This document shows, piece after piece, positions 28,939-50,784 of a DNA stretch of 64,000 nucleotides. The notes beneath the pieces were generated by a model, which made no database searches, was not told the origin of the DNA, and saw only the letters and a list, made by a program, of their open reading frames with translations. The first letter of the stretch is position 1. Each line of letters starts with the position of its first letter. Origin of the DNA: Candidatus Doudnabacteria bacterium. GTDB lineage: Bacteria; Patescibacteriota; Doudnabacteria; UBA920; O2-02-FULL-48-8. The translations under genes were made by a program, and so were the position numbers. The stretch covers positions 4,905 through 68,904 of the forward strand of contig JACQHB010000009.1 in assembly GCA_016199215.1 (NCBI GenBank). Reading direction: 5' to 3'.

Positions 28939-28967
28939 TTGACAAATGGTCAAAAAGGGAGTATATT
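28939..28967 (+). promoter_or_regulatory. consensus sigma70-type promoter upstream of the DGR target gene
   Basis: TTGACA (28939-28944), a 17-bp spacer, then TATATT (28962-28967), read directly. A strong RBS (AGGAGGA) lies 8 nt before the 29048 ATG. Confidence 0.6.
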
Positions 28968-29047
28968 ATATGGTCAAAATGAGAAGGTAGATTATCTCAT
29001 TTACCGAAGTCTGGCGGTTTCCAGGCTAACACCAGGAGGATGCGCCG

Positions 29048-29662
29048 ATGGCCAAAGCCATTGCCCCGTCCGTGTCAGTGGAACAGTCCGAATCGAAGAT
29101 CGCTGGTTTGCTCGATCAGCTCAAGGCGGTCATTCGTCACTCAGGTCTCAACGACGACCAGCTTCAGGCGATTCGCGACAGCGGCCGACTGCCGGTTGAT
29201 TTCGAACCGGTGTTTGCCAAACTCGCAGCCGTGGTCTGCAATGCGATCCGGCTGACGATCTCGACCGTGAAGGCCTTCGAGAAGCCGAGCTGGATGAAGC
29301 GTCTCGTTCGCGGCAACGACCCAGTCACGCCTGGCATCTACGAGTACACCTTCGAAGGATTCCTTCGCGAAGGTGAAGAGTCGGTCAAGGGCGATGAGAT
29401 GGTCGCTCGAGCCAAGGCGTCAGGTGCTTACTCGGGATTGCAGCACGCGCTGTACTTCCTGGACAACCAGCACCTCATTCCGGAGGAGTTCAGGGACAAG
29501 AAATACTTGATCTTTGCCGACACAGAGGCGCTCAACTCCAACGACCGCAGCGATGTGGCCTGCCTCGCGTGGGGCGGCCTCCAGTGGATTCTGTACTGGC
29601 GCTTGCTTGTGGATGACTTTAACCGGAACGATCTGCTCGTTCGCGCCCGCAAGGTCCAGTAG
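29048..29662 (+). CDS. DGR target (variable) protein, 204 aa, with the variable repeat at its C-terminus; no signal peptide and no recognisable domain
   Basis: Its last ~126 bp are repeated with adenine-specific differences ~500 bp downstream (the TR). The gene is visibly GC-rich relative to all flanking genes. Confidence 0.8.
   Translation: MAKAIAPSVSVEQSESKIAGLLDQLKAVIRHSGLNDDQLQAIRDSGRLPVDFEPVFAKLAAVVCNAIRLTISTVKAFEKPSWMKRLVRGNDPVTPGIYEYTFEGFLREGEESVKGDEMVARAKASGAYSGLQHALYFLDNQHLIPEEFRDKKYLIFADTEALNSNDRSDVACLAWGGLQWILYWRLLVDDFNRNDLLVRARKVQ
29527..29652 (+). repeat. DGR variable repeat (VR) with an IMH-like invariant 3' segment
   Basis: Aligns with the TR at 30029-30154, and 15 of 16 mismatches sit at TR adenines. 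The 3' 35 nt (gactttaaccggaacgatctgctcgttcgcgcccg) are identical in both copies. The VR ends 10 bp before the stop codon. Confidence 0.85.
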
Positions 29663-30028
29663 TCCTCGGCACCTTGGGTCCTTTGTTCTTGGACCCTTGG
29701 GTTCTTGGGAGCCTCACGATTTCGATTCAATTCGATTCGTGGGCTCCTTTTCATTTCCGCCTTCGTCAAGACTTCGGCGGACAGGTTGCTAATATGATAA
29801 AATTACTTTAGATAAATTTGAAAATATCTGCGAGTATTGCTTTCAGATTGTTTATCTCGCACTGTCAGAATGCCAGAGTGTCTTAAGTTTACTTAAGATA
29901 GAGTGCTATCTGACAAGAAGATTCCATAGGAACTTGGTGTATGGTATTAGAGGATTTGCAGGATCCCGAATTAAATACAGCCTTAAGAGTATTCGAGAGG
30001 TGGTGTTAACGGATGATACTGTGCACAT

Positions 30029-30154
30029 GGCGCTCAACTCCAACGACAACAGCAATGTGGCCTACCTCAAGTGGGACGGCAACCAGTGGATTCTGAACTG
30101 GAACTGGCTTGAGAATGACTTTAACCGGAACGATCTGCTCGTTCGCGCCCGAAA
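30029..30154 (+). other. DGR template repeat (TR), non-coding and rich in AAC/AAT codons in the VR frame
   Basis: See the VR entry. The TR contains aac or aat at every position that differs in the VR. The ORF-track ORF 29934-30251 is just this template read as protein. Confidence 0.85.
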
Positions 30155-30180
30155 CTTCCGTGGATACAAAAACTCCTCCC

Positions 30181-30510
30181 TTAATTGGGAGGAGTTTGTT
30201 TGCCGATTTGTTTTTGCCAGCCACCAAGTTGCCGGCCGACTTCGCCTATAACAACTGTCAATTCGGATAAAGTTTTGTCATCAACCGTTTTTAATTCAAT
30301 AGCTGTTTGAAGAAAGTATTTCAGCAAATCTAATTTAATACTCGCTTTTTTGAGAATTATTGATTTTTGTTCCTTTTCAGAATAGCCTGCTATCAAAATC
30401 AATTCTGTAAGCTCGATAAATAAATTTGTTATTTTTTCCCCTAAAGAATAACGAATAAGTCTTGGAATGCGTGGCAGATGGTTAATCCAGATTTTGAATG
30501 CTATCGACAA
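30181..30510 (-). CDS. avd: DGR accessory variability determinant (Avd-like four-helix-bundle protein)
   Basis: About 109 aa with the near-C-terminal ...ELTVVIGEVGRQLGGWQKQ... segment and the ELILIAGYS segment resembling the Avd / four-helix-bundle family. TTG start. It sits between the TR and the RT but on the opposite strand. Confidence 0.7.
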   Translation of the reverse strand: MSIAFKIWINHLPRIPRLIRYSLGEKITNLFIELTELILIAGYSEKEQKSIILKKASIKLDLLKYFLQTAIELKTVDDKTLSELTVVIGEVGRQLGGWQKQIGKQTPPN

Positions 30511-30552
30511 TTTCTGAATTATGGGCAGATTTAAAGTGTCGAAATTTCCGTT

Positions 30553-30562
30553 GGGGGGGGGG
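30553..30562. repeat. G10 homopolymeric tract at the 5' end of the RT gene
   Basis: ttgggggggggcg read directly. It lies in the RT 5' extension or promoter, depending on which start codon is real. Confidence 0.8.
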
Positions 30563-30578
30563 CGTATTAAATGTCATT

Positions 30579-31590
30579 ATGAAAATTAAGTTTAGTATTA
30601 ATTATCAAGAGCTAATATCAGTCGAGAACCTTTTTGCTGCATGGAAGGAGTTTATAAACGGTAAGCGAAGTAAGCCGGACGTCCAAAGATTTGCTCACGC
30701 TTTAATAGATAATATTCTACAGCTTCACGAGGATCTTGCCAACAAGACCTATAAGCATGGCGGTTATCATTGTTTTAATATCTCTGATCCTAAGCCTCGT
30801 AATATTAGCAAGGCGATTGTTCGTGATCGTTTATTACATCACGCGATTTATAGAAAATTCTATCCGTTTTTCGATAAGACCTTTATTGCTGATTCGTATT
30901 CCTGTCGAATTAATAAAGGAACTCATAAAGCTATTGATCGATTGTTAGGGATGTATTATAAGGTCAGTAAAAATAATCATAAGACTTGCTGGATATTAAA
31001 ATGCGATATTAGAAAATTTTTCGGCAGTATCGACCATAATATTTTGCTTAAGATTTTACAGTATTATATTCCCGATCAAGACATCCTCTGGTTGATGAAA
31101 AATATTATTGTCAGCTTTTCAACAAGTGAGAATAAGGGACTGCCGCTAGGCAATCTTACCTCGCAGCTGTTTGTGAACGTATACATGAATGAATTTGACC
31201 AGCGTAAAACATAAGCTTAAGGTCAAGAATTATATAAGGTACGCTGATGATTTTGTGATCCTATCGAAGGAAAGAAATGAATTGGTTAGTTTAATTGATA
31301 AGATTACCAAGTTTCTTAAGGACGAACTTGATTTAACCTTGCATCCGTATAAAATCAATATAAGCAATTTTGCGTTAGGAGTTGATTTTCTTGGTTGGGT
31401 TAATTTTTCAAAGCATAGAGTATTAAGAACTACAACCAAAAAGCACATGTTGAGGCGAATAGGCGAGCACCCAACAGCTGAGATGTTGCAGTCTTATTTA
31501 GGCTTATTGCAGCTTGGCAATACTAATAAGATTAAACAAGATCTCGTGAGTAAATATTGGTATTTGAACACACGAAAACTGGAATTGTAG
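30579..31590 (+). CDS. DGR-type reverse transcriptase, interrupted by a frameshift near 31200-31215 (pseudogene or sequencing error)
   Basis: RT motifs in order: ...CFNISDPKPRNISKAIVRDRLLHHAIY..., ...ILKCDIRKFFGSIDH..., DGR-characteristic GLPLGNLTSQLFVNVYMNEFD, then in the +1 frame VKHKLKVKNYIRYADDFVILS (YADD box) and thumb. The two ORF-track ORFs 30498-31214 and 31189-31590 are the two halves. Confidence 0.85.
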
Positions 31591-31611
31591 AAAAACTGAG
31601 ATTTGACAAAC

Positions 31612-31640
31612 GGGAACAATAGTGGTAAAAAATAAATGAG
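31612..31640 (+). promoter_or_regulatory. sigma70-like promoter upstream of the large surface-protein gene
   Basis: TTGACA, a 17-bp spacer, then TAAAAA(AT), read directly. Followed by a 7-bp hairpin (ttaacct/aggttaa) in the leader. Confidence 0.45.
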
Positions 31641-31713
31641 AGTTAACCTTGAAAGATTAGGTTAAATCAGAACAACAGAGAGACCAAAAAGCCCAAAACG
31701 CAGGCGGTGGAGC

Positions 31714-34700
31714 TTGCGCTTTTTTAATCCAAAAATTTTGAGCAAGAGGAAGAAAATTTTTTTGGCATCAACCCTTGTTTTACTGGGGCTTTTGGTTGCG
31801 GTCTTATTCTTGATCGATCGTCAAACAGATAATTCTTATAAGGGGGAGGTTGCTGGTATAAATATTGAAAGCCCTAAAATTGAGCAAATCGAGCAATTTG
31901 AAACAACCCACCAAGATGCTGCTACTGACGATCTGACCTCAAGCAGTATCGACTCTGCTCCTCAACCAGTAATTTTTTCCCCGCCATCCCCAGTTTTTTC
32001 GTCTCCTTCATTTCAACTCATCCCGGAGCAGGCCTCTACGGACGAATCTCCTCCACAAGCTGTTTCTGCTCCAGTTTCCTCTTCACCTCCAAATCCATTG
32101 CCTGTGTGGGGTGGGGTTAGTAGCGGAAGTAATCCGGAAGTACCAGCGGCTCCGCTTGTTTTGGACTCAACTCCTCCCAATCCTCCAACTGTTTCAACCC
32201 CAATTGCCAATTCAACTGTTACAGACGGTTCTCAAACTATTTCCGGGACCAAGACTTCCGATTCGGTTTTGGTTTGGGTTAATTCAGAATCAACCGGGGT
32301 CACTTATCCAAGCTCAACTACCTGGGAAAAAACAGTCGATTTGGCTTTTGGTATAAATACTTTTTCCATAACTTCCACTGACGGCGCTGGCAATCAAAGT
32401 GAAGCTGTCTCATATTCCATAAGTTTGGATAATCAAGGTCCGGACGTGCCAGTCGTAATTTCACCCGCCAATAATTTCACTTTTTATTCTGAAAATGATT
32501 ATGACCAAGACACACCGGGCATGCAGGTCTTATTGTTGGGGACCAAGACAGCTGACGCAAGTTTGGTCTTGATAAACTCTGCAGGTGTAATTTATCCCAG
32601 CAGTACGAGTTGGCAGAAAACAATCACCCTTAGCACGGGGATTAATAGTTTTAGCTTGCTGGCAAAAGATGAGTTTGGCAATGAAAGCCCTTCCGTATCC
32701 CATACAGTAAGCTATGACGACTCGCCTCTGCCTGATGCTCCCACAGTTACTTCTCACTCAAACAATGCTACGGTTTATCCAGAAAACGATTTAGAGGCTG
32801 ATGCCGGCATGCAAATTTTATTTTCCGGGACCAAGCCTCCTTCTGCCGCGACTGTTCAAATAAACGGAAGTTCCTCTGGGGTTTTGTATCCAACTGATAC
32901 TACCTGGCAAAAAACCATTACTCTTTCATCTGGCGCAAACAGTTTTACGCTAAAGTCCGTAACCAGCGCAAATCGAGAAAGTTCTTCCACGTCCCACACG
33001 GTTAACTATAATAGCACGCCGCTTCCAGAGATTGACTTAATTTTTAGCAGCCACCGGCCGACTTCATTGACCATTCCAGTATCCTGGTCGTCAACCACAC
33101 CGGGGGTCGCTAGTTTTGATGTAGAGTATAAGACAGGCAATGGAAGTTTTGTCTCCTGGAAATCAGCCACAACCGCAATCTCTGATAATTTTTATGCAAC
33201 CCAAGATCGAACCACTTATACTTTCCGGGCGAGGTCCAGATCTACTCGAATCGGGGATTGGGAGGAACAATCAACAGAAATTTTCCTTCAAGCAGTGATT
33301 ATTAATGAAATTGCTTGGCCGGGGACTGATGCTTCCAGCAATGACGAATGGATTGAGCTTTACAACAATACGAACTCGGCAATTAGCCTGGCTGGCTGGA
33401 AATTAACGACATTGTCAGGCTCCATTAACACGACCTTATCAGGGACAATAAGCGCCAAGGGATATTATCTTTTGGAACGAACTGACGATACAACAATTGA
33501 CAGTTTGGCAGCAGATAAAATTTATACAGGTTACTTGGATAATGGAGGTGATCGGATTAATTTGATCAATGACGAAAACAGGACAATCGATGTTGTAGAC
33601 ATGTCCTCAACCGGATGGACCGCTGGTACTGTTGCTGGTAAGAAAACAGCGGAACGAATAAATCCCAATCTATCTTCTTTTGCATCCAACAATTTCGCGA
33701 CCTCTACTGCCACAAGTTCTGAAACAGATTCAGAAGACAATCCTATCAAAGGAACGCCGAAGGCAGTTAACAGCGTGTTGAATGCCAGTTTGGCTGCCGC
33801 AACCCCGATTGTCTATGATACTGCCATAAATCGGGACACGGTTTTTGATGAGCTTGGGGAAATTTACAAAACTCAAGGAGCAGGGTTAACTCTTTCTGCC
33901 GATACGACGTTAGTGGTACGACCCGGAGTGGCAATTCTTGCCAATTCTCAAATCCAAATCAATGGCAAACTTAGCGTGGTCGGAACAGGCTCCTCCAACG
34001 CGGTCTTCACCTCTTACAGAGATTCAAATTATGGCGGAGCTGGTGGAGCAAATCCAGGCGATTGGACCGGAATCAAATTCAATGCGGGCGCTTCAAGTCT
34101 TTCAAGCATTGATTATGCCAAAATAATTTACGCTGGAAGCGCGGGCGGCATGAGTGGGGGAATAATCGTGAATGGTTCCAATCCGACAATAACGAATTCC
34201 ATAATAGAAAGAAGTATTTACGGCGCCACTGTCCTTTCCGGTAACCCAACCATTTCCAACAACACAATGCAGAACAATGATGCGACTGGCCTGCGAATCG
34301 CTGGCGGTAGTGCGGTCATCAACAACAATAGCAGTTTGGCAAACCAATATGGGGCGATTATCGAAGGCGGCGGCCCGACCCTGACCAGCAATGTTTTTGA
34401 CAACAATACTTCTGAAGCGATTCAATGGTACTTCCTAAGTTCAACCCTCGCTGGATCCGGCAATACAGCTTCGGGCAACCCGAAGAATGCCATTGAACTT
34501 GCCGGCGGATCAAACACCGGAGGAAACCATACTTTTGTCAATCTTGGTTTGGGTTATTCGGTTAACAGCTTAACAGTGCGGGCATCCGATACTTTAACTA
34601 TTAATCCAGGTACGATAATCAAATTCTCAAGTGGCATGACCGTAAATGGTAAATTGATTGCAGTTGGTACTGCTGGCAATCGCATTGTGTTTACTTCTTC

Positions 34701-35109
34701 CACTGACCCGGGTGTACCAGTCCCAGGGCAATGGGGAAATGTGAATTTAACCGCTTCTTCATCAGTAGAAACCCAAATTGCTTACGCGGATTTCAAAAAC
34801 GGCACCGGTCTTTCCGGCACCACAGGGGCTTTGTATGTTGCAGTCAACGGCCTAAGTTTTGACTACCTTAATTTTGACGGCAACGGCTTGGGTTTGTTTG
34901 TGAACAGTTCAAATATAAGCATCAGTCAAAGCATGTTTAACAATAATCCCAGCGGCGGTTTGATCAACAATACCAGCAATCTTGTTAATGCCGAAAATAA
35001 TTACTGGGGCAATGCCAGCGGGCCAAGACACAGTTCCAACCCCGGTGGAACCGGAGACAATGTCAGCGATAATATTGATTTTGACCCGTTTCTAACGGAA
35101 GCTCCCTAA
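31714..35109 (+). CDS. large cell-surface protein with an N-terminal TM anchor, Pro/Ser-rich linker, three Ig-like repeats, a lamin-tail domain (LTD) and parallel beta-helix repeats
   Basis: TTG start. Three ~95-aa tandem repeats (...[34 protein letters not shown]...). LTD signature [27 protein letters not shown]...LAGWKL. Then repeated NNxxxG beta-helix units (pectate-lyase-like). Confidence 0.7.
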
Positions 35110-49463: not shown

Positions 49464-49806
49464 CGGCGTTGCGCTTTCTTCTTCCTATTTACTAAAAAAG
49501 AGGGTCCCTAAAGGGATGCCTCAAGAGTCCACTGCGGACGGTTCCATCTTGATTCCTTGCTCTTTTCTGTTATAATTATAAACCCACTAAGGGCAAGGCT
49601 CTTAATTGCGCAAGATAACGGATTGCGTCCGGCAGGGTCTATTAATAGCTTAATTTGGCCATATTCTTCCTGCAGCGCCGTAAAATACGGAAACAAAGTG
49701 ACAGCTTTGTAATTCGCTTTTGCTGATTGAAAAATCCGTTTTAAGTATAGTTAAAGCCGATCTTTCAGTCAAACAAAAACCAACATCTAACCAGTGAGGA
49801 GGACAC

Positions 49807-50784
49807 ATGGCGAAGAATGTTGTCACCAGCCCTTTTCATTGGCGAAGGGCATTCCAGAGGGTTCGAGAACGGTTCGGCTTGAGTTCTTGGCAAATCGTGG
49901 CTCTGCATGAGATATTCGATGAGCTGGAAGAAACTGAGAGGCAGGAGAGAAATCAGGACCTGGACAACGAGCGCGCTCGCATTAATCTTGAGCATGAGGA
50001 AGCATTCCAAAAGCTCCAAGAGATTTTGTCGGGCCTGTTTTTAAGCTTCGAGCGGCAAACTGTAGACCTGTCGAAGGAAAGGGAAGAGAACATCGCCCTG
50101 AATAGGATTCTCGACCAGAAAGTGCGCGAGAATCAGGTTCTGCGGAAACTGATAAATCGGTATGATCAGGACCGAATTTCGAAGCTCCACACGCTCGGAA
50201 TCACGCGCCAGGCTTGCGAGGAATACATTGTCGACCCAAACGTCGCGTCGTTGCTCCTGGTATTCCTGGATGTCAACGACTTCAAGAGTAGGATCAACTT
50301 CGAGTTCGGAAGGCCGGTTGGGACTCAGGTGATCAGGGCAGTCGGCAGGATGATCGGCCAGCTGACGCGGGGAATCGACGTAAAAGGCAGGACCATTTCA
50401 GAGCCGGGTTCCTTGAACGCATCACGCTGGGGAGGCGACGAATTCGTTATCATCGCCCCGCTCAAGTCCGAAGACCTTCCGTTTCAGTTGATCCGAAGGA
50501 TACGGGATCACCTCGAAGACCCAGAGTATCAGGCCAATTGTGGCGTGTCGTTACCGTTTAGCTTGAGGTTCTCTATCGGCGCTGTACACTATATCCTGCC
50601 TAAGGATCGGTACGCTTTGCCGCCAGAGACGCAATATGACAAGTTGATAGACGCGGCTGATGCGCTTACTGATGTTTCCAAGGAAAAAAAGCCGGACACT
50701 CACACTTGCCTGCTGCGGGCCAGGCTTGAGCGGGAAGACGATGGGGAGTTGGACCTGGCGGGGACACTCGTCACTTTTACATAG
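49807..50784 (+). CDS. GGDEF-domain protein (putative diguanylate cyclase) with an N-terminal coiled-coil region
   Basis: ...LLLVFLDVNDFKSRINFEFG..., ...RWGGDEFVIIAP..., ...SIGAV... GGDEF-domain motifs with an intact GGDEF box. The gene is GC-richer than its neighbours. Confidence 0.7.
   Translation: MAKNVVTSPFHWRRAFQRVRERFGLSSWQIVALHEIFDELEETERQERNQDLDNERARINLEHEEAFQKLQEILSGLFLSFERQTVDLSKEREENIALNRILDQKVRENQVLRKLINRYDQDRISKLHTLGITRQACEEYIVDPNVASLLLVFLDVNDFKSRINFEFGRPVGTQVIRAVGRMIGQLTRGIDVKGRTISEPGSLNASRWGGDEFVIIAPLKSEDLPFQLIRRIRDHLEDPEYQANCGVSLPFSLRFSIGAVHYILPKDRYALPPETQYDKLIDAADALTDVSKEKKPDTHTCLLRARLEREDDGELDLAGTLVTFT

Follow-up and report, generated by a model that had tools for sequence, protein, structure and literature searches.

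The prototype DGR is that of Bordetella phage BPP-1 (mtd, avd, TR, brt), where adenine-mutagenic copying carries the TR into a VR at the 3' end of the target gene, the 3' end of the VR is conserved and a hairpin lies just downstream of it. The 64-kb stretch of DNA analysed here (the window) contains a DGR with the same parts and the same logic, arranged in the order promoter, structured leader, target with 3' VR, hairpins, spacer, TR, inverted avd and reverse transcriptase (RT). It differs from the phage element in that avd is inverted and placed between TR and RT, in that its 204-aa target has no detectable similarity to Mtd, and in having a structured leader predicted to sequester the start codon as well as a poly-G tract before the RT gene (Table 1).

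DGRs of CPR bacteria appear as the "CPR set" in Wu et al. 2018 (PMC5758913), which cites Paul et al. 2017. The element in the window shares with them an Avd protein, an adenine-specific TR/VR pair, an RT that is 60–73% identical, a small target that ends in the VR and lacks a recognisable Pfam domain, and a chromosomal site amid housekeeping genes, and departs from them in its frameshifted RT; it is a genuine DGR of the CPR type. For about 20% of whole DGRs, a GC deviation of 5% or more from the host is reported there and read as recent transfer (Wu et al. 2018, PMC5758913). Atypical GC is routinely interpreted in that way, while in the present case a single cassette carries two opposite deviations. 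Searched for GC content and codon usage, the DGR surveys open to search make no mention of a mosaic within a cassette, and a target that stays at about 0.60 GC whatever the host, next to an RT that follows the host, is apparently undescribed.

Table 1. Features of the DGR cassette, with positions in the window
Feature	Position	Strand	Details
Target promoter, TTGACA, 17-nt spacer, TATATT	28939..28967	+	matches consensus at 11/12
Conserved 5' leader with two hairpins	28979..29027	+	seven-locus alignment
Start-codon hairpin, GGAUGCGCCGAUGGC-caaa-GCCAUUGCCCCGUCC	29038..29071	+	predicted pairing
DGR target gene, variable protein of 204 aa	29048..29662	+	GC ~0.585–0.587, GC3 0.755
VR	29527..29657	+	131 nt, encodes last ~44 target residues
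Post-VR hairpin, GGGTCC-9 nt-GGACCC	29676..29696	+	paired changes in relatives
Terminator-like hairpin, GGAGCCTCACGA...TCGTGGGCTCC then TTTTCATTT	29708..29756	+	read from sequence
AT-rich spacer, GC 0.36	29791..30028	+	upstream of TR
TR	30029..30159	+	GC 0.54; non-A positions 0.72; third positions (VR frame) 82% G+C
avd, 109 aa, GC 0.345	30181..30510	-	inverted, between TR and RT
Poly-G tract, 10 G	30553..30562	+	ends 16 nt before RT start codon
DGR RT, GC 0.35	30579..31590	+	split by 2-nt deletion between 31202 and 31203

VR and TR are 86% identical; of their 18 mismatches, 15 coincide with adenines of the TR (binomial p=6e-7), and the A-derived changes are mostly at codon positions 1 and 2. 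Towards the 3' end, where a DGR would have its conserved IMH, the two repeats are the same across 29613–29649 and divergent beyond, and this VR is the only one in the window. The avd product matches PF22296 bAvd (E=2.3e-13, 51 bits with a cut-off of 40) and phrog_3206 "Avd protein of DGR" (E=1.8e-15), and the gene has the same position and strand in seven related loci (L001, L004, L016, L022, L025, L028 and L032). A long G run like that preceding the RT gene, of some 8–11 G as judged by eye, is also found in L001, L004, L016, L022 and L032. The target protein is 100% identical to HY336_01885 of a Candidatus Doudnabacteria MAG and has no match in Pfam or PHROG; a scan of genome contigs with the target alignment found only the known locus. 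A C-type lectin fold is weakly suggested by structural modelling, as the AF2 model (pLDDT 76, with 76–92 in the C-terminal two thirds) has C-type-lectin-like top matches in the PDB by Foldseek, namely the Bd2740 C-terminal domain, rhodocetin and BDCA2, which are weak (E 0.12–1, TM ~0.5 on the target side).

The RT is encoded by two overlapping ORFs (30498–31214 and 31189–31590), with RVT_1 profile positions 8–139 in the first and 141–203 in the second. At the frameshift the family consensus NEFDQFVKHK is represented by NEFDQ / (c)VKHK, and the deletion, which may be real or a consensus error, lies outside any homopolymer. Once repaired, the sequence matches phrog_1423 (E=1e-104). It has more than 8000 relatives, mostly of about 325–360 aa among the matches listed, and is 60–73% identical to thousands from Doudnabacteria, Kerfeldbacteria, Azambacteria, Jorgensenbacteria and other Patescibacteria; other members of this CPR RT clade also adjoin TR/VR pairs. 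Because of the frameshift the copy in the window may be inactive and, judging from the reading frame, the element may no longer be diversifying in this genome, so that present-day activity of this DGR should not be assumed.

The most prominent property of the cassette is its composition. In 200-nt segments, GC is 0.36–0.42 immediately upstream of 29000, 0.58–0.595 over 29000–29700 and 0.30–0.40 over 30200–31700, compared with 0.451 for the window overall. Sharp steps occur at about 29000 and about 29790, and the resulting layout is GC/AT/GC/AT: a GC-rich target, an AT-rich spacer, a GC-rich TR, and AT-rich avd and RT. When the entire 64 kb are scanned, the 615-nt segment of highest GC begins at 29035–29042 (0.59, z=3.5) and that of lowest GC at 30826–30830 (0.325), so that the GC maximum and the GC minimum are only 1.8 kb apart. 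The initial annotation, which had described the target ORF as far GC-richer than its surroundings and had proposed a sliding-window check, is confirmed by this significant shift and by a GC3 that compares with 0.50 in the window (0.503±0.069 over its 44 ORFs). GC1 of the target is 0.623 (0.505±0.045 in the 44 ORFs) and its GC2, at 0.38, is ordinary. The target also ranks first among the outliers in trinucleotide signature (z=5.3), with avd and RT next (z=3.3–3.9). Two further descriptions need to be amended: the TR, which had been called GC-rich, is so at its non-A positions (72% G+C) but only moderately overall, since 26% of it is adenine, and avd and RT, said to be AT-rich like the host, are indeed AT-rich but not host-like, the host being at 0.45; they are the most AT-rich DNA of the window.

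It had also been proposed that adenine mutagenesis alone could not make the whole gene GC-rich. This holds, as the 473 nt outside the VR are still at 0.575. From TR to VR, 12 of the 15 changed A sites are now G or C, which amounts to about +0.09 GC, and mutagenesis explains this TR-to-VR difference only. A spill-over of DGR mutagenesis, as an adenine-specific depletion upstream of the VR, was rejected: AT skew is about 0 over 29000–29500 and does not become negative before the VR is reached, and T3 is depleted along with A3.

Such a mosaic calls for scrutiny of the assembly, as hypervariable VRs can break assemblies and an abrupt change in GC is a common warning sign, and the contig had been suspected of being chimeric, with reads of a GC-rich organism joined to a Doudnabacteria contig. 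The layout, however, recurs in at least 10 independent assemblies (NCBI, JGI, ENA, Logan, IMG/VR) which derive from different samples and assemblers and have the same junctions, and in all of them the AT-rich promoter/leader is contiguous with the GC-rich ORF and the GC-rich target adjoins AT-rich avd/RT. In addition, the supposed junction is spanned by the relation of the two repeats: the TR lies on its AT-rich side and the VR on its GC-rich side, yet they match with the adenine signature of a DGR, as a chimera would not. The suspicion is thus not borne out, and there is practically no chance that the contig is chimeric; the DGR is a real contiguous element.

Sequence conservation between loci extends across the cassette, and both compositional switches lie within it. 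Its left edge is marked by a homologous TTGACAAA...TATAnT in L001, L002, L004, L019 and L021, and the GC-rich composition starts at the leader. The first leader hairpin (ATGAGA...TCTCAT) is a short form of a long GAGAA...TTCTC stem in other loci; the second (GTCTGG-cggttt-CCAGGC, 29008–29027) has kept its pairing as U.G in the window, U-A in L019 and L021 and C-G in L002. By its predicted pairing, the start-codon hairpin would hide the start codon and the 3' part of the Shine-Dalgarno sequence. All 12 of its predicted pairs are invariant in five loci, third codon positions included, while synonymous divergence outside it is about 1. The stem of the post-VR hairpin has been preserved by paired changes (GGATCC/GGATCC in L001, GGGCCC/GGGCCC in L002), making it a candidate, by analogy with the Bordetella phage DGR, for a target-recognition hairpin or a cruciform. 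The terminator-like hairpin is kept in L001, L002, L020 and L021 and is present in the MFE fold; a simple terminator scan did not list it. The spacer, probably the 5' part of the DGR RNA, is 72–88% identical to that of L001 and recognisable in L002, and is therefore conserved despite its AT-richness; between the window and L001 (identity 0.72–0.88) it is conserved equally to the GC-rich target. Rfam has no family for the leader, spacer or TR region. The ends of the cassette abut or overlap housekeeping genes; neither an integrase or transposase nor flanking repeats turned up among the ORFs, in a scan for repeats or in gene calls at related loci, and gene calls and repeat scan showed no tRNA site.

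The excess of GC in the target is mainly synonymous. Given its amino acids and host codon usage, a GC of 0.489 would be expected, which is exceeded by 0.098, compared with a standard deviation of 0.02 and a maximum of +0.054 in the same test on host genes; two thirds of the excess are synonymous. For the RT, 0.39 is expected and 0.35 observed. The proposed comparison of codon usage finds the target atypical, with an RSCU correlation to the host of only 0.09. Amino acid composition does contribute, since the expectations for target and RT deviate from the genomic 0.45 in opposite directions, and the near-consensus promoter and strong Shine-Dalgarno sequence of the target would fit codon optimisation of a highly expressed gene. 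It is nevertheless improbable that a cause at the level of protein or expression underlies the mosaic, given the synonymous share of the excess and the fact that the transcript is GC-rich in its non-coding 5' and 3' portions too. Expression-linked codon bias in particular was rejected: besides the lack of RSCU correlation, the host genes with high GC3 are not of highly expressed types (a GGDEF protein, an ECF sigma factor and similar), the region of the S20 gene is at about 0.37–0.40 GC, and target GC3 values of 0.79–0.83 occur in hosts of 0.33–0.37 GC, where optimal codons cannot coincide. Codon matching to a specific donor is uninformative, as pooled targets correlate at 0.86 with the L002 flanks and at 0.88 with an unrelated GC-rich contig, both of which differ from the targets in that the latter favour CTC over CTG.

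A further observation was the constancy of target composition across hosts. Over 13 independent cassettes of the RT clade, the target exceeds its flanks by 0.124 GC on average (Wilcoxon p=0.0007), and the RT lies on average 0.039 below them. Target GC is 0.602±0.021 in 16 of 18 loci, with flanks, which on short contigs serve as a proxy for host GC, ranging from 0.327 to 0.60. In L022 a target of 0.61 is flanked by DNA of 0.33, and in L019 a lone target of 0.60 lies between hisS and rpsU, with flanks at 0.37. The RT tracks its flanks (GC r=0.71, slope 0.88; GC3 r=0.77, p=0.002), and the composition of the target is independent of them (r=0.07–0.11). The effect is seen in at least three unrelated target families, and also in the hybrid target of L004. 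Synonymous divergence between targets reaches dS values of 0.65–1.3, with GC3 at 0.75–0.87 throughout, and RT synonymous sites are saturated (pS 0.8–0.95). Even the TR, which is untranslated and lies amid AT-rich DNA, has 78–90% G+C at third positions across cassettes (C 0.58, G 0.25, T 0.14 and A 0.03 when eight are pooled). The rule is not universal, as the targets of L023 and L024, from the same clade, are at host composition and more distant phage DGRs are GC-enriched around the VR only. In large targets, examined for a GC gradient towards the VR, enrichment is limited to the VR and about 150 nt on either side, so that the gene-wide effect is specific to small CPR targets.

Horizontal transfer is a rival explanation that can take more than one form. 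The initial annotation had suggested that, at this one locus, a target and TR block of high-GC origin was joined to an avd/RT module already resident and host-like, for which the sharp steps at both ends of the target region might speak. As stated, this is not supported, and we regard it as very improbable: avd and RT (0.35) are not at host composition (0.45), the TR is a separate GC-rich islet with spacer and avd on either side, the steps lie within conserved cassette sequence, and the identical arrangement with identical junction sequences is found in L001, L004, L016, L022, L032 and others, the mosaic being common to diverged cassettes. That these other loci are recent copies of the cassette in the window is argued against by dS values of at least 0.65. 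What survives of the suggestion is that target modules have been shuffled among related RTs and that the family has a member in a GC-rich (0.60) Doudnabacteria-like genome.

In a broader form, target modules would circulate from GC-rich CPR lineages, such as GC-rich Doudnabacteria, into low-GC hosts, recombine into resident avd/RT modules and not yet have ameliorated. A gene of about 0.6 GC in a genome of 0.33–0.45 is the classic signature of foreign DNA, and targets and RTs are not strictly co-phyletic: the RT of the window is closest to that of L032 (70%), which has an unrelated target, the L004 target is a hybrid, and a comparison of the window with L001 gives higher similarity for target, spacer and TR (0.72–0.88) than for avd and RT (0.48–0.78). 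GC-rich hosts or RTs do occur in the clade (L002, L020, L036). As L002, sister to the subgroup of the window, resides in the Doudnabacteria-like genome of GC 0.60, and L036 has a GC-rich RT in a background of 0.51, transfer out of GC-rich relatives does occur. Moreover, distant homologues with no RT found on the DNA available for them have host-like or intermediate GC (L010 with 0.52; L014, L015, L017, L018), and changes on the branches of the window and L019 are mostly towards AT (5:1 and 4:0), which would fit ongoing amelioration of these copies. Against this, at least nine cassettes and three unrelated families would have to have undergone recent replacement independently, with a GC-rich donor every time; DGR-linked copies show no intermediate states (sd 0.02); a GC-rich donor block would be interrupted by the conserved AT-rich spacer between target and TR; and in the tree of the target family both shallow and deep branches, the latter including L009, L016 and L022, are in low-GC hosts. 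We consider such exchange with GC-rich relatives, whether ancient or repeated, rather unlikely, yet still a serious competitor.

According to the model ascribed to Lawrence and Ochman, atypical islands reportedly arise by horizontal transfer and then undergo amelioration. The cassette resembles such islands in its gene-sized blocks, in GC3 and codon usage that look foreign, and in its different sites in related genomes, and its composition is atypical relative to the host. It is unlike them in that two neighbouring parts of a single unit depart from the host in opposite ways and in that the deviation does not decay with divergence, the GC3 of the RT following the host and that of the target being unchanged over dS 0.65–1.3. 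A whole-cassette transfer with neutral amelioration afterwards is excluded, since equilibrium has been reached by the RT but not by the target.

Nor does the substitution spectrum look like amelioration. When synonymous changes are polarised by the Fitch method, the per-site rate of W>S is three times that of S>W, which also argues against the exchange of unameliorated modules, and the implied equilibrium GC3 is 0.75 (p=0.03 to 0.002 against neutral host equilibria of 0.5 to 0.35), in what is a small test with 21 changes at 46 sites, closer relatives included. A polarisation with distant outgroups (S>W 30, W>S 9) was discarded, as saturation and a GC-rich outgroup alone give that ratio. Outside the VR, the coding regions of targets have more stable folds than their dinucleotide-shuffled versions (mean z -1.88, n=13), compared with +0.22 for 12 control coding segments, GC-rich ones among them (Mann-Whitney p=0.0009). 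Within the ORF, RNAalifold gives no net support from covariation (term +6.5), and only the leader hairpins stand out, so the excess of folding has no defined structure behind it.

We favour an explanation, to which we give an even chance, where the mosaic is an inherited property of the cassette throughout the lineage, with a constraint in favour of GC that is intrinsic to target transcript and TR. The target transcription unit and the TR would be held near 60% GC, chiefly through synonymous codons ending in G or C, while spacer, avd and RT would follow host composition, the latter two genes being pushed slightly lower by proteins rich in Lys, Asn, Ile, Tyr and Phe. Since retrohoming writes TR information into the VR, this copy relation forces the two to stay alike and accounts for the GC-richness of the TR. 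For the target as a whole, a GC-favouring fixation bias acting on the nucleic acid would be needed, most likely as selection for stability of duplexes or RNA structure in the target transcript and the TR/VR pairing partners, alternatively as biased gene conversion in an often-recombining gene. The mosaic, its recurrence, its synonymous nature, its fine layout by functional element and its independence of host GC are observed; active maintenance and the force behind it are what we infer. GC-biased conversion or selection in bacteria, reportedly described by Lassalle et al. in 2015 and Hildebrand et al. in 2010, is said to have effects of a few GC3 points; the target is similar in the synonymous W>S fixation bias of an often-recombining gene but differs in an excess of 25–50 GC3 points confined to that one gene. 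We know of no mechanism that requires GC-rich sequence upstream of the VR.

Somewhat more tentatively, and with slightly less than even confidence, we extend this to a large clade of CPR DGRs, in which target unit and TR would be actively held at about 60% GC (GC3 ~0.8) in hosts of 33–60%, with RT and Avd left to drift. If so, retrohoming or the handling of the target transcript would impose a requirement on the nucleic acid far beyond the VR, for which stability of duplexes or RNA structure and conversion bias are candidates, and this would be a constraint of DGR function not recognised before. It would also provide a compositional signature for finding DGR targets, remote or orphan ones included: an island the size of a gene, at about 60% GC in an AT-rich genome and combined with a conserved leader and hairpins after the VR, could serve as a flag. 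Caution would then be needed where DGR transfers are dated by GC deviation, and the constraint would point to an unrecognised need of DGR targeting or of target expression in CPR bacteria.

The region is a diversity-generating retroelement (DGR) comprising a promoter, a leader, a target gene for the variable protein with a variable repeat (VR) at its 3' end, hairpins, a spacer, the template repeat (TR), an inverted accessory gene (avd) and a reverse transcriptase (RT) gene. VR and TR carry the adenine signature, as TR adenines account for 15 of their 18 differences (p=6e-7), with codon positions 1 and 2 affected in nearly every case; a search across the window found no further VR. A hypothetical protein in a Candidatus Doudnabacteria MAG matches the target protein at 100% identity. 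Pfam and PHROG searches with the target protein gave no match, and its AF2 model has weak C-type-lectin-like structural matches. More than 8000 relatives of the RT exist, the best 120 of these being 60-73% identical and distributed across Patescibacteria lineages. The RT is split by a deletion within the RT domain, just before the YADD motif, which was called against the family consensus NEFDQFVKHK and is not at a homopolymer; the copy in the window may be inactive, its RT being split. The RT of L002/L007 (handles of the form L001 denote other loci encoding relatives of the target or the RT) is likewise split, and a scan of L002 detected no TR/VR pair. An ORF directly downstream of the RT has the look of a surface protein gene: its product combines a hydrophobic segment at the N-terminus with long regions that are Ser/Thr/Pro-rich and repeat-like.

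Features of the DGR in the window and of related loci
Feature	Sequence	Position	Strand	Remarks
Target 5' leader	window	28979-29027		
Target 5' leader	L001	7050-7143		
Hairpin	window	29038-29071		12 pairs; encloses part of target Shine-Dalgarno sequence and start codon
Target ORF	window	29048-29662		204 aa
Non-VR target region	window	29048-29526		folding test
VR	window	29527-29657		86% identical to TR
TR	window	30029-30159		pair partner of VR
avd	window	30181-30510	minus	bAvd match
Poly-G tract	window	30553-30562		10 G; ends 16 nt before RT start codon
RT	window	30579-31590		very large CPR clade
ORFs of split RT	window	30498-31214, 31189-31590		
RT deletion	window	31202/31203		2 nt
Downstream ORF	window	31714-35109		1131 aa
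GGDEF-domain gene	window	49751-50784		
Cassette	L001	6600-9700		between rplS and sodA
Cassette	L004	9780-12340		between trmD and rluD
Lone target	L019	1650-2440		between hisS and rpsU
Cassette, two targets	L036	2836-7930		
Cassette, two targets	L039	4492-7600		

The juxtaposition of a GC-rich target and an AT-rich avd/RT is real and far beyond chance. In a window with an overall GC of 45.1%, GC in 200-nt windows is 0.58-0.595 at 29000-29700, drops to 0.36-0.40 at 29700-30000 and climbs again to 0.46-0.505 across the TR, while avd and RT have 0.30-0.40. A scan of every 615-nt window of the 64 kb places the highest GC (0.59, z=3.5) at starts 29035-29042 and the lowest (0.325) at starts 30826-30830. 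The target ORF has a GC3 (GC at third codon positions) of 0.755 and a GC1 of 0.623, compared to 0.503±0.069 and 0.505±0.045 for 44 ORFs, with an ordinary GC2, and is the window's strongest outlier in trinucleotide signature (z=5.3), followed by avd/RT (z=3.3-3.9). The initial annotation was thus right that the target is GC-rich relative to its surroundings. It described avd and RT as AT-rich like the host, of which only the first part holds, as both are about 10 points under the host, and the TR, which it called GC-rich, has adenine at a quarter of its positions and therefore an overall GC of only 0.54. After the DGR, the GGDEF-domain gene has the most atypical composition in the window (GC 0.53, GC3 0.65, trinucleotide z 3.0-3.4), and it is possibly another acquired gene.

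Given its own amino-acid sequence and host codon usage, the target would have a GC of 0.489 rather than the observed 0.587, an excess of +0.098 or 4.9 sd of host genes, while the RT has 0.35 against an expected 0.39, a deficit mostly due to amino-acid content. A spill-over of adenine mutagenesis can be rejected as the cause, as the depletion affects A3 and T3 alike, which is usual for genes in genomes of 60% GC, and the sequence upstream of the VR has a neutral AT skew; that adenine mutagenesis would be insufficient had been correctly foreseen. Codon optimisation of the target is unlikely, since host genes with high GC3 are not of highly expressed types, the S20 gene region next door has a GC of about 0.37-0.40, and the target's codon usage is uncorrelated with that of the host (r=0.09). 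It looks like that of GC-rich genes in general, apart from a preference of its own for CTC over CTG.

Loci encoding relatives of the target or of the RT were fetched and GC was measured for target, RT and flanks, flank GC standing in for host GC on short contigs. The pattern was seen again in independent assemblies.

GC content of flanks, targets and RTs at related loci
Locus	Flank	Target	RT	Remarks
L001	0.43	0.61	0.34	
L004	0.45	0.58	0.36	
L016	0.45	0.60	0.40	
L022	0.33	0.61	0.33	
L025	0.47	0.60	0.49	
L028	0.43	0.59	0.43	
L032	0.45	0.63	0.43	
L039	0.45	0.61, 0.62	0.41	two targets
L019	0.37	0.60	none	lone target
L021	0.44	0.65		no RT in sequence examined
L060	0.41	0.62		no RT in sequence examined
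L002	0.60	0.605	0.49	GC-rich host
L020	0.595	0.60		GC-rich host; no RT in sequence examined

Homology between cassettes has its left edge at the -35 box of the target promoter, and the switch to GC-rich sequence lies about 50 nt inside this edge, within the conserved leader; the right-hand switch likewise lies within conserved sequence. As both switches are inside conserved cassette sequence, neither a misassembly nor a junction made in this genome can account for the pattern. The suspicion that the contig is chimeric at this point can therefore be dismissed, and the proposal that target and TR from a high-GC donor were joined to a resident avd/RT fails as a one-off event in this genome. Donor models of a more general kind are plausible, if less likely than not.

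Averaged across 13 independent cassettes from the RT clade, the difference from flank GC is +0.124 for the target (p=0.0007) and -0.039 for the RT. Flank GC predicts RT GC (r=0.71, slope 0.88; for GC3 r=0.77, p=0.002) and is not tracked by target GC (r about 0.1), which is 0.602±0.021 in 16 of 18 loci with flanks of 0.33-0.60, the targets representing at least three unrelated protein families and one hybrid. Within the clade, L023 and L024 are exceptions, and in more distant phage-type DGRs GC enrichment is limited to the VR and its vicinity. About 20% of DGRs have been reported to differ from the host by 5% GC or more, which was taken as recent transfer (Wu et al. 2018, PMC5758913). The DGR surveys searched do not mention an intra-cassette mosaic or a host-independent target composition, and the rule appears to be undescribed and unexplained.

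The 5' leader of the target is conserved and structured in the window, L001, L019, L021 and L002, with a GAGAA...UUCUC stem that is long but has a shortened form in the window, and a hairpin (GUCUGG-cgguuu-CCAGGC) in which pairing is kept via U.G, U-A and C-G; an Rfam search with the leader gave no match. In the hairpin at the target start codon all paired bases, third codon positions included, are invariant in five loci, with synonymous divergence elsewhere of about 1, a pattern of conservation from which translational control of the variable protein seems likely. The poly-G tract is located between the divergent avd and RT genes. Just ahead of the RT start, L001, L004, L016, L022 and L032 likewise carry a long run of G, estimated by eye at about 8-11, for which a C run further upstream offers a pairing partner in L001 and L004; a homopolymer of variable length before the RT could switch its expression on and off.

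The hosts of L001 and L004 are related (RplS 80%, RNase Y 83% identical) and carry the cassette at different sites within a syntenic region, so the cassette moves as a whole and takes its mosaic along. At the L004 site rluD has lost about 8 N-terminal codons, and its new start overlaps the stop of the RT gene; neither L001 nor L004 has a recombinase gene near the cassette. Lone GC-rich targets occur between housekeeping genes in L019 and on the contig of P0009 (between HU and MscS; a relative known from gene calls only). Each has a promoter, a leader, a VR-like end and hairpins, with no RT on the contig; these genes could be orphans, or could serve as remote targets for a DGR located elsewhere. 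In two cassettes of the clade, L036 and L039, one TR serves two targets. The RT of L036 is GC-rich (0.60, GC3 0.79) against a background of 0.51, and this cassette alone gives the impression of having come recently from a GC-rich host.

This RT is among the observations that would fit a repeated exchange of targets from GC-rich relatives, an explanation which we regard as a serious possibility, though less likely than not. Targets are shuffled among related RTs, the window and L001 are more alike in the target-spacer-TR half than in avd and RT, and a sister lineage of the window's subgroup resides in a GC-rich Doudnabacteria-like genome; the branches of the window and L019 lean AT-ward, and homologues without an RT in the sequence examined have a host-like or intermediate GC. 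A simple donor origin, however, is difficult to reconcile with a layout of four switches in step with functional elements, where target transcript and TR are GC-rich, spacer, avd and RT are AT-rich, and the AT-rich spacer is as strongly conserved as the target. The TR is untranslated, yet its third positions (in the VR frame) are 78-90% G+C. Targets have diverged by a dS of 0.65-1.3, over which a two-state model predicts a fall in GC3 from 0.80 to 0.45-0.70, and RT synonymous sites are saturated, yet host composition has been adopted by the RT only. Low-GC hosts are found on both deep and shallow branches of the target family tree. Changes were counted by Fitch parsimony at 46 strictly synonymous sites, a small sample in which parsimony bias runs counter to the outcome; there were 15 G/C to A/T changes on 313 G/C branch-sites and 6 A/T to G/C changes on 42 A/T branch-sites. 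The per-site rate towards G/C is thus three times the reverse rate, implying an equilibrium GC3 of 0.75 (p=0.03 to 0.002 against neutral host equilibria). Non-VR coding regions of 13 targets (the window and equivalents in L001, L002, L004, L009, L016, L019, L021, L022, L025, L028, L032 and L039) are also more stably folded than dinucleotide shuffles, with a mean z of -1.88 compared to +0.22 for 12 controls, GC-rich genes among them (p=0.0009); RNAalifold found no conserved covarying structure behind this excess.

We give about an even chance to a GC-favouring constraint intrinsic to the element. The remaining rivals are together quite improbable, and with possibilities that we have not named they still make up only a small share. 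As sources of the whole-gene GC of the target, the folding excess and the bias towards G/C suggest either that the stability or structure of the nucleic acid is under selection, or that conversion is biased because the gene recombines. From what is known of the family, RT-Avd would copy the TR-containing RNA, inserting random nucleotides opposite its adenines, and the resulting cDNA would then take the place of the VR. With the TR serving as master copy, TR and VR are coupled in composition, and G/C at non-adenine positions may help the cDNA to pair stably with the VR despite mismatches at up to a quarter of positions. The element itself is an ordinary member of a known CPR DGR clade; the best reading of its compositional architecture is that it is conserved and probably maintained.
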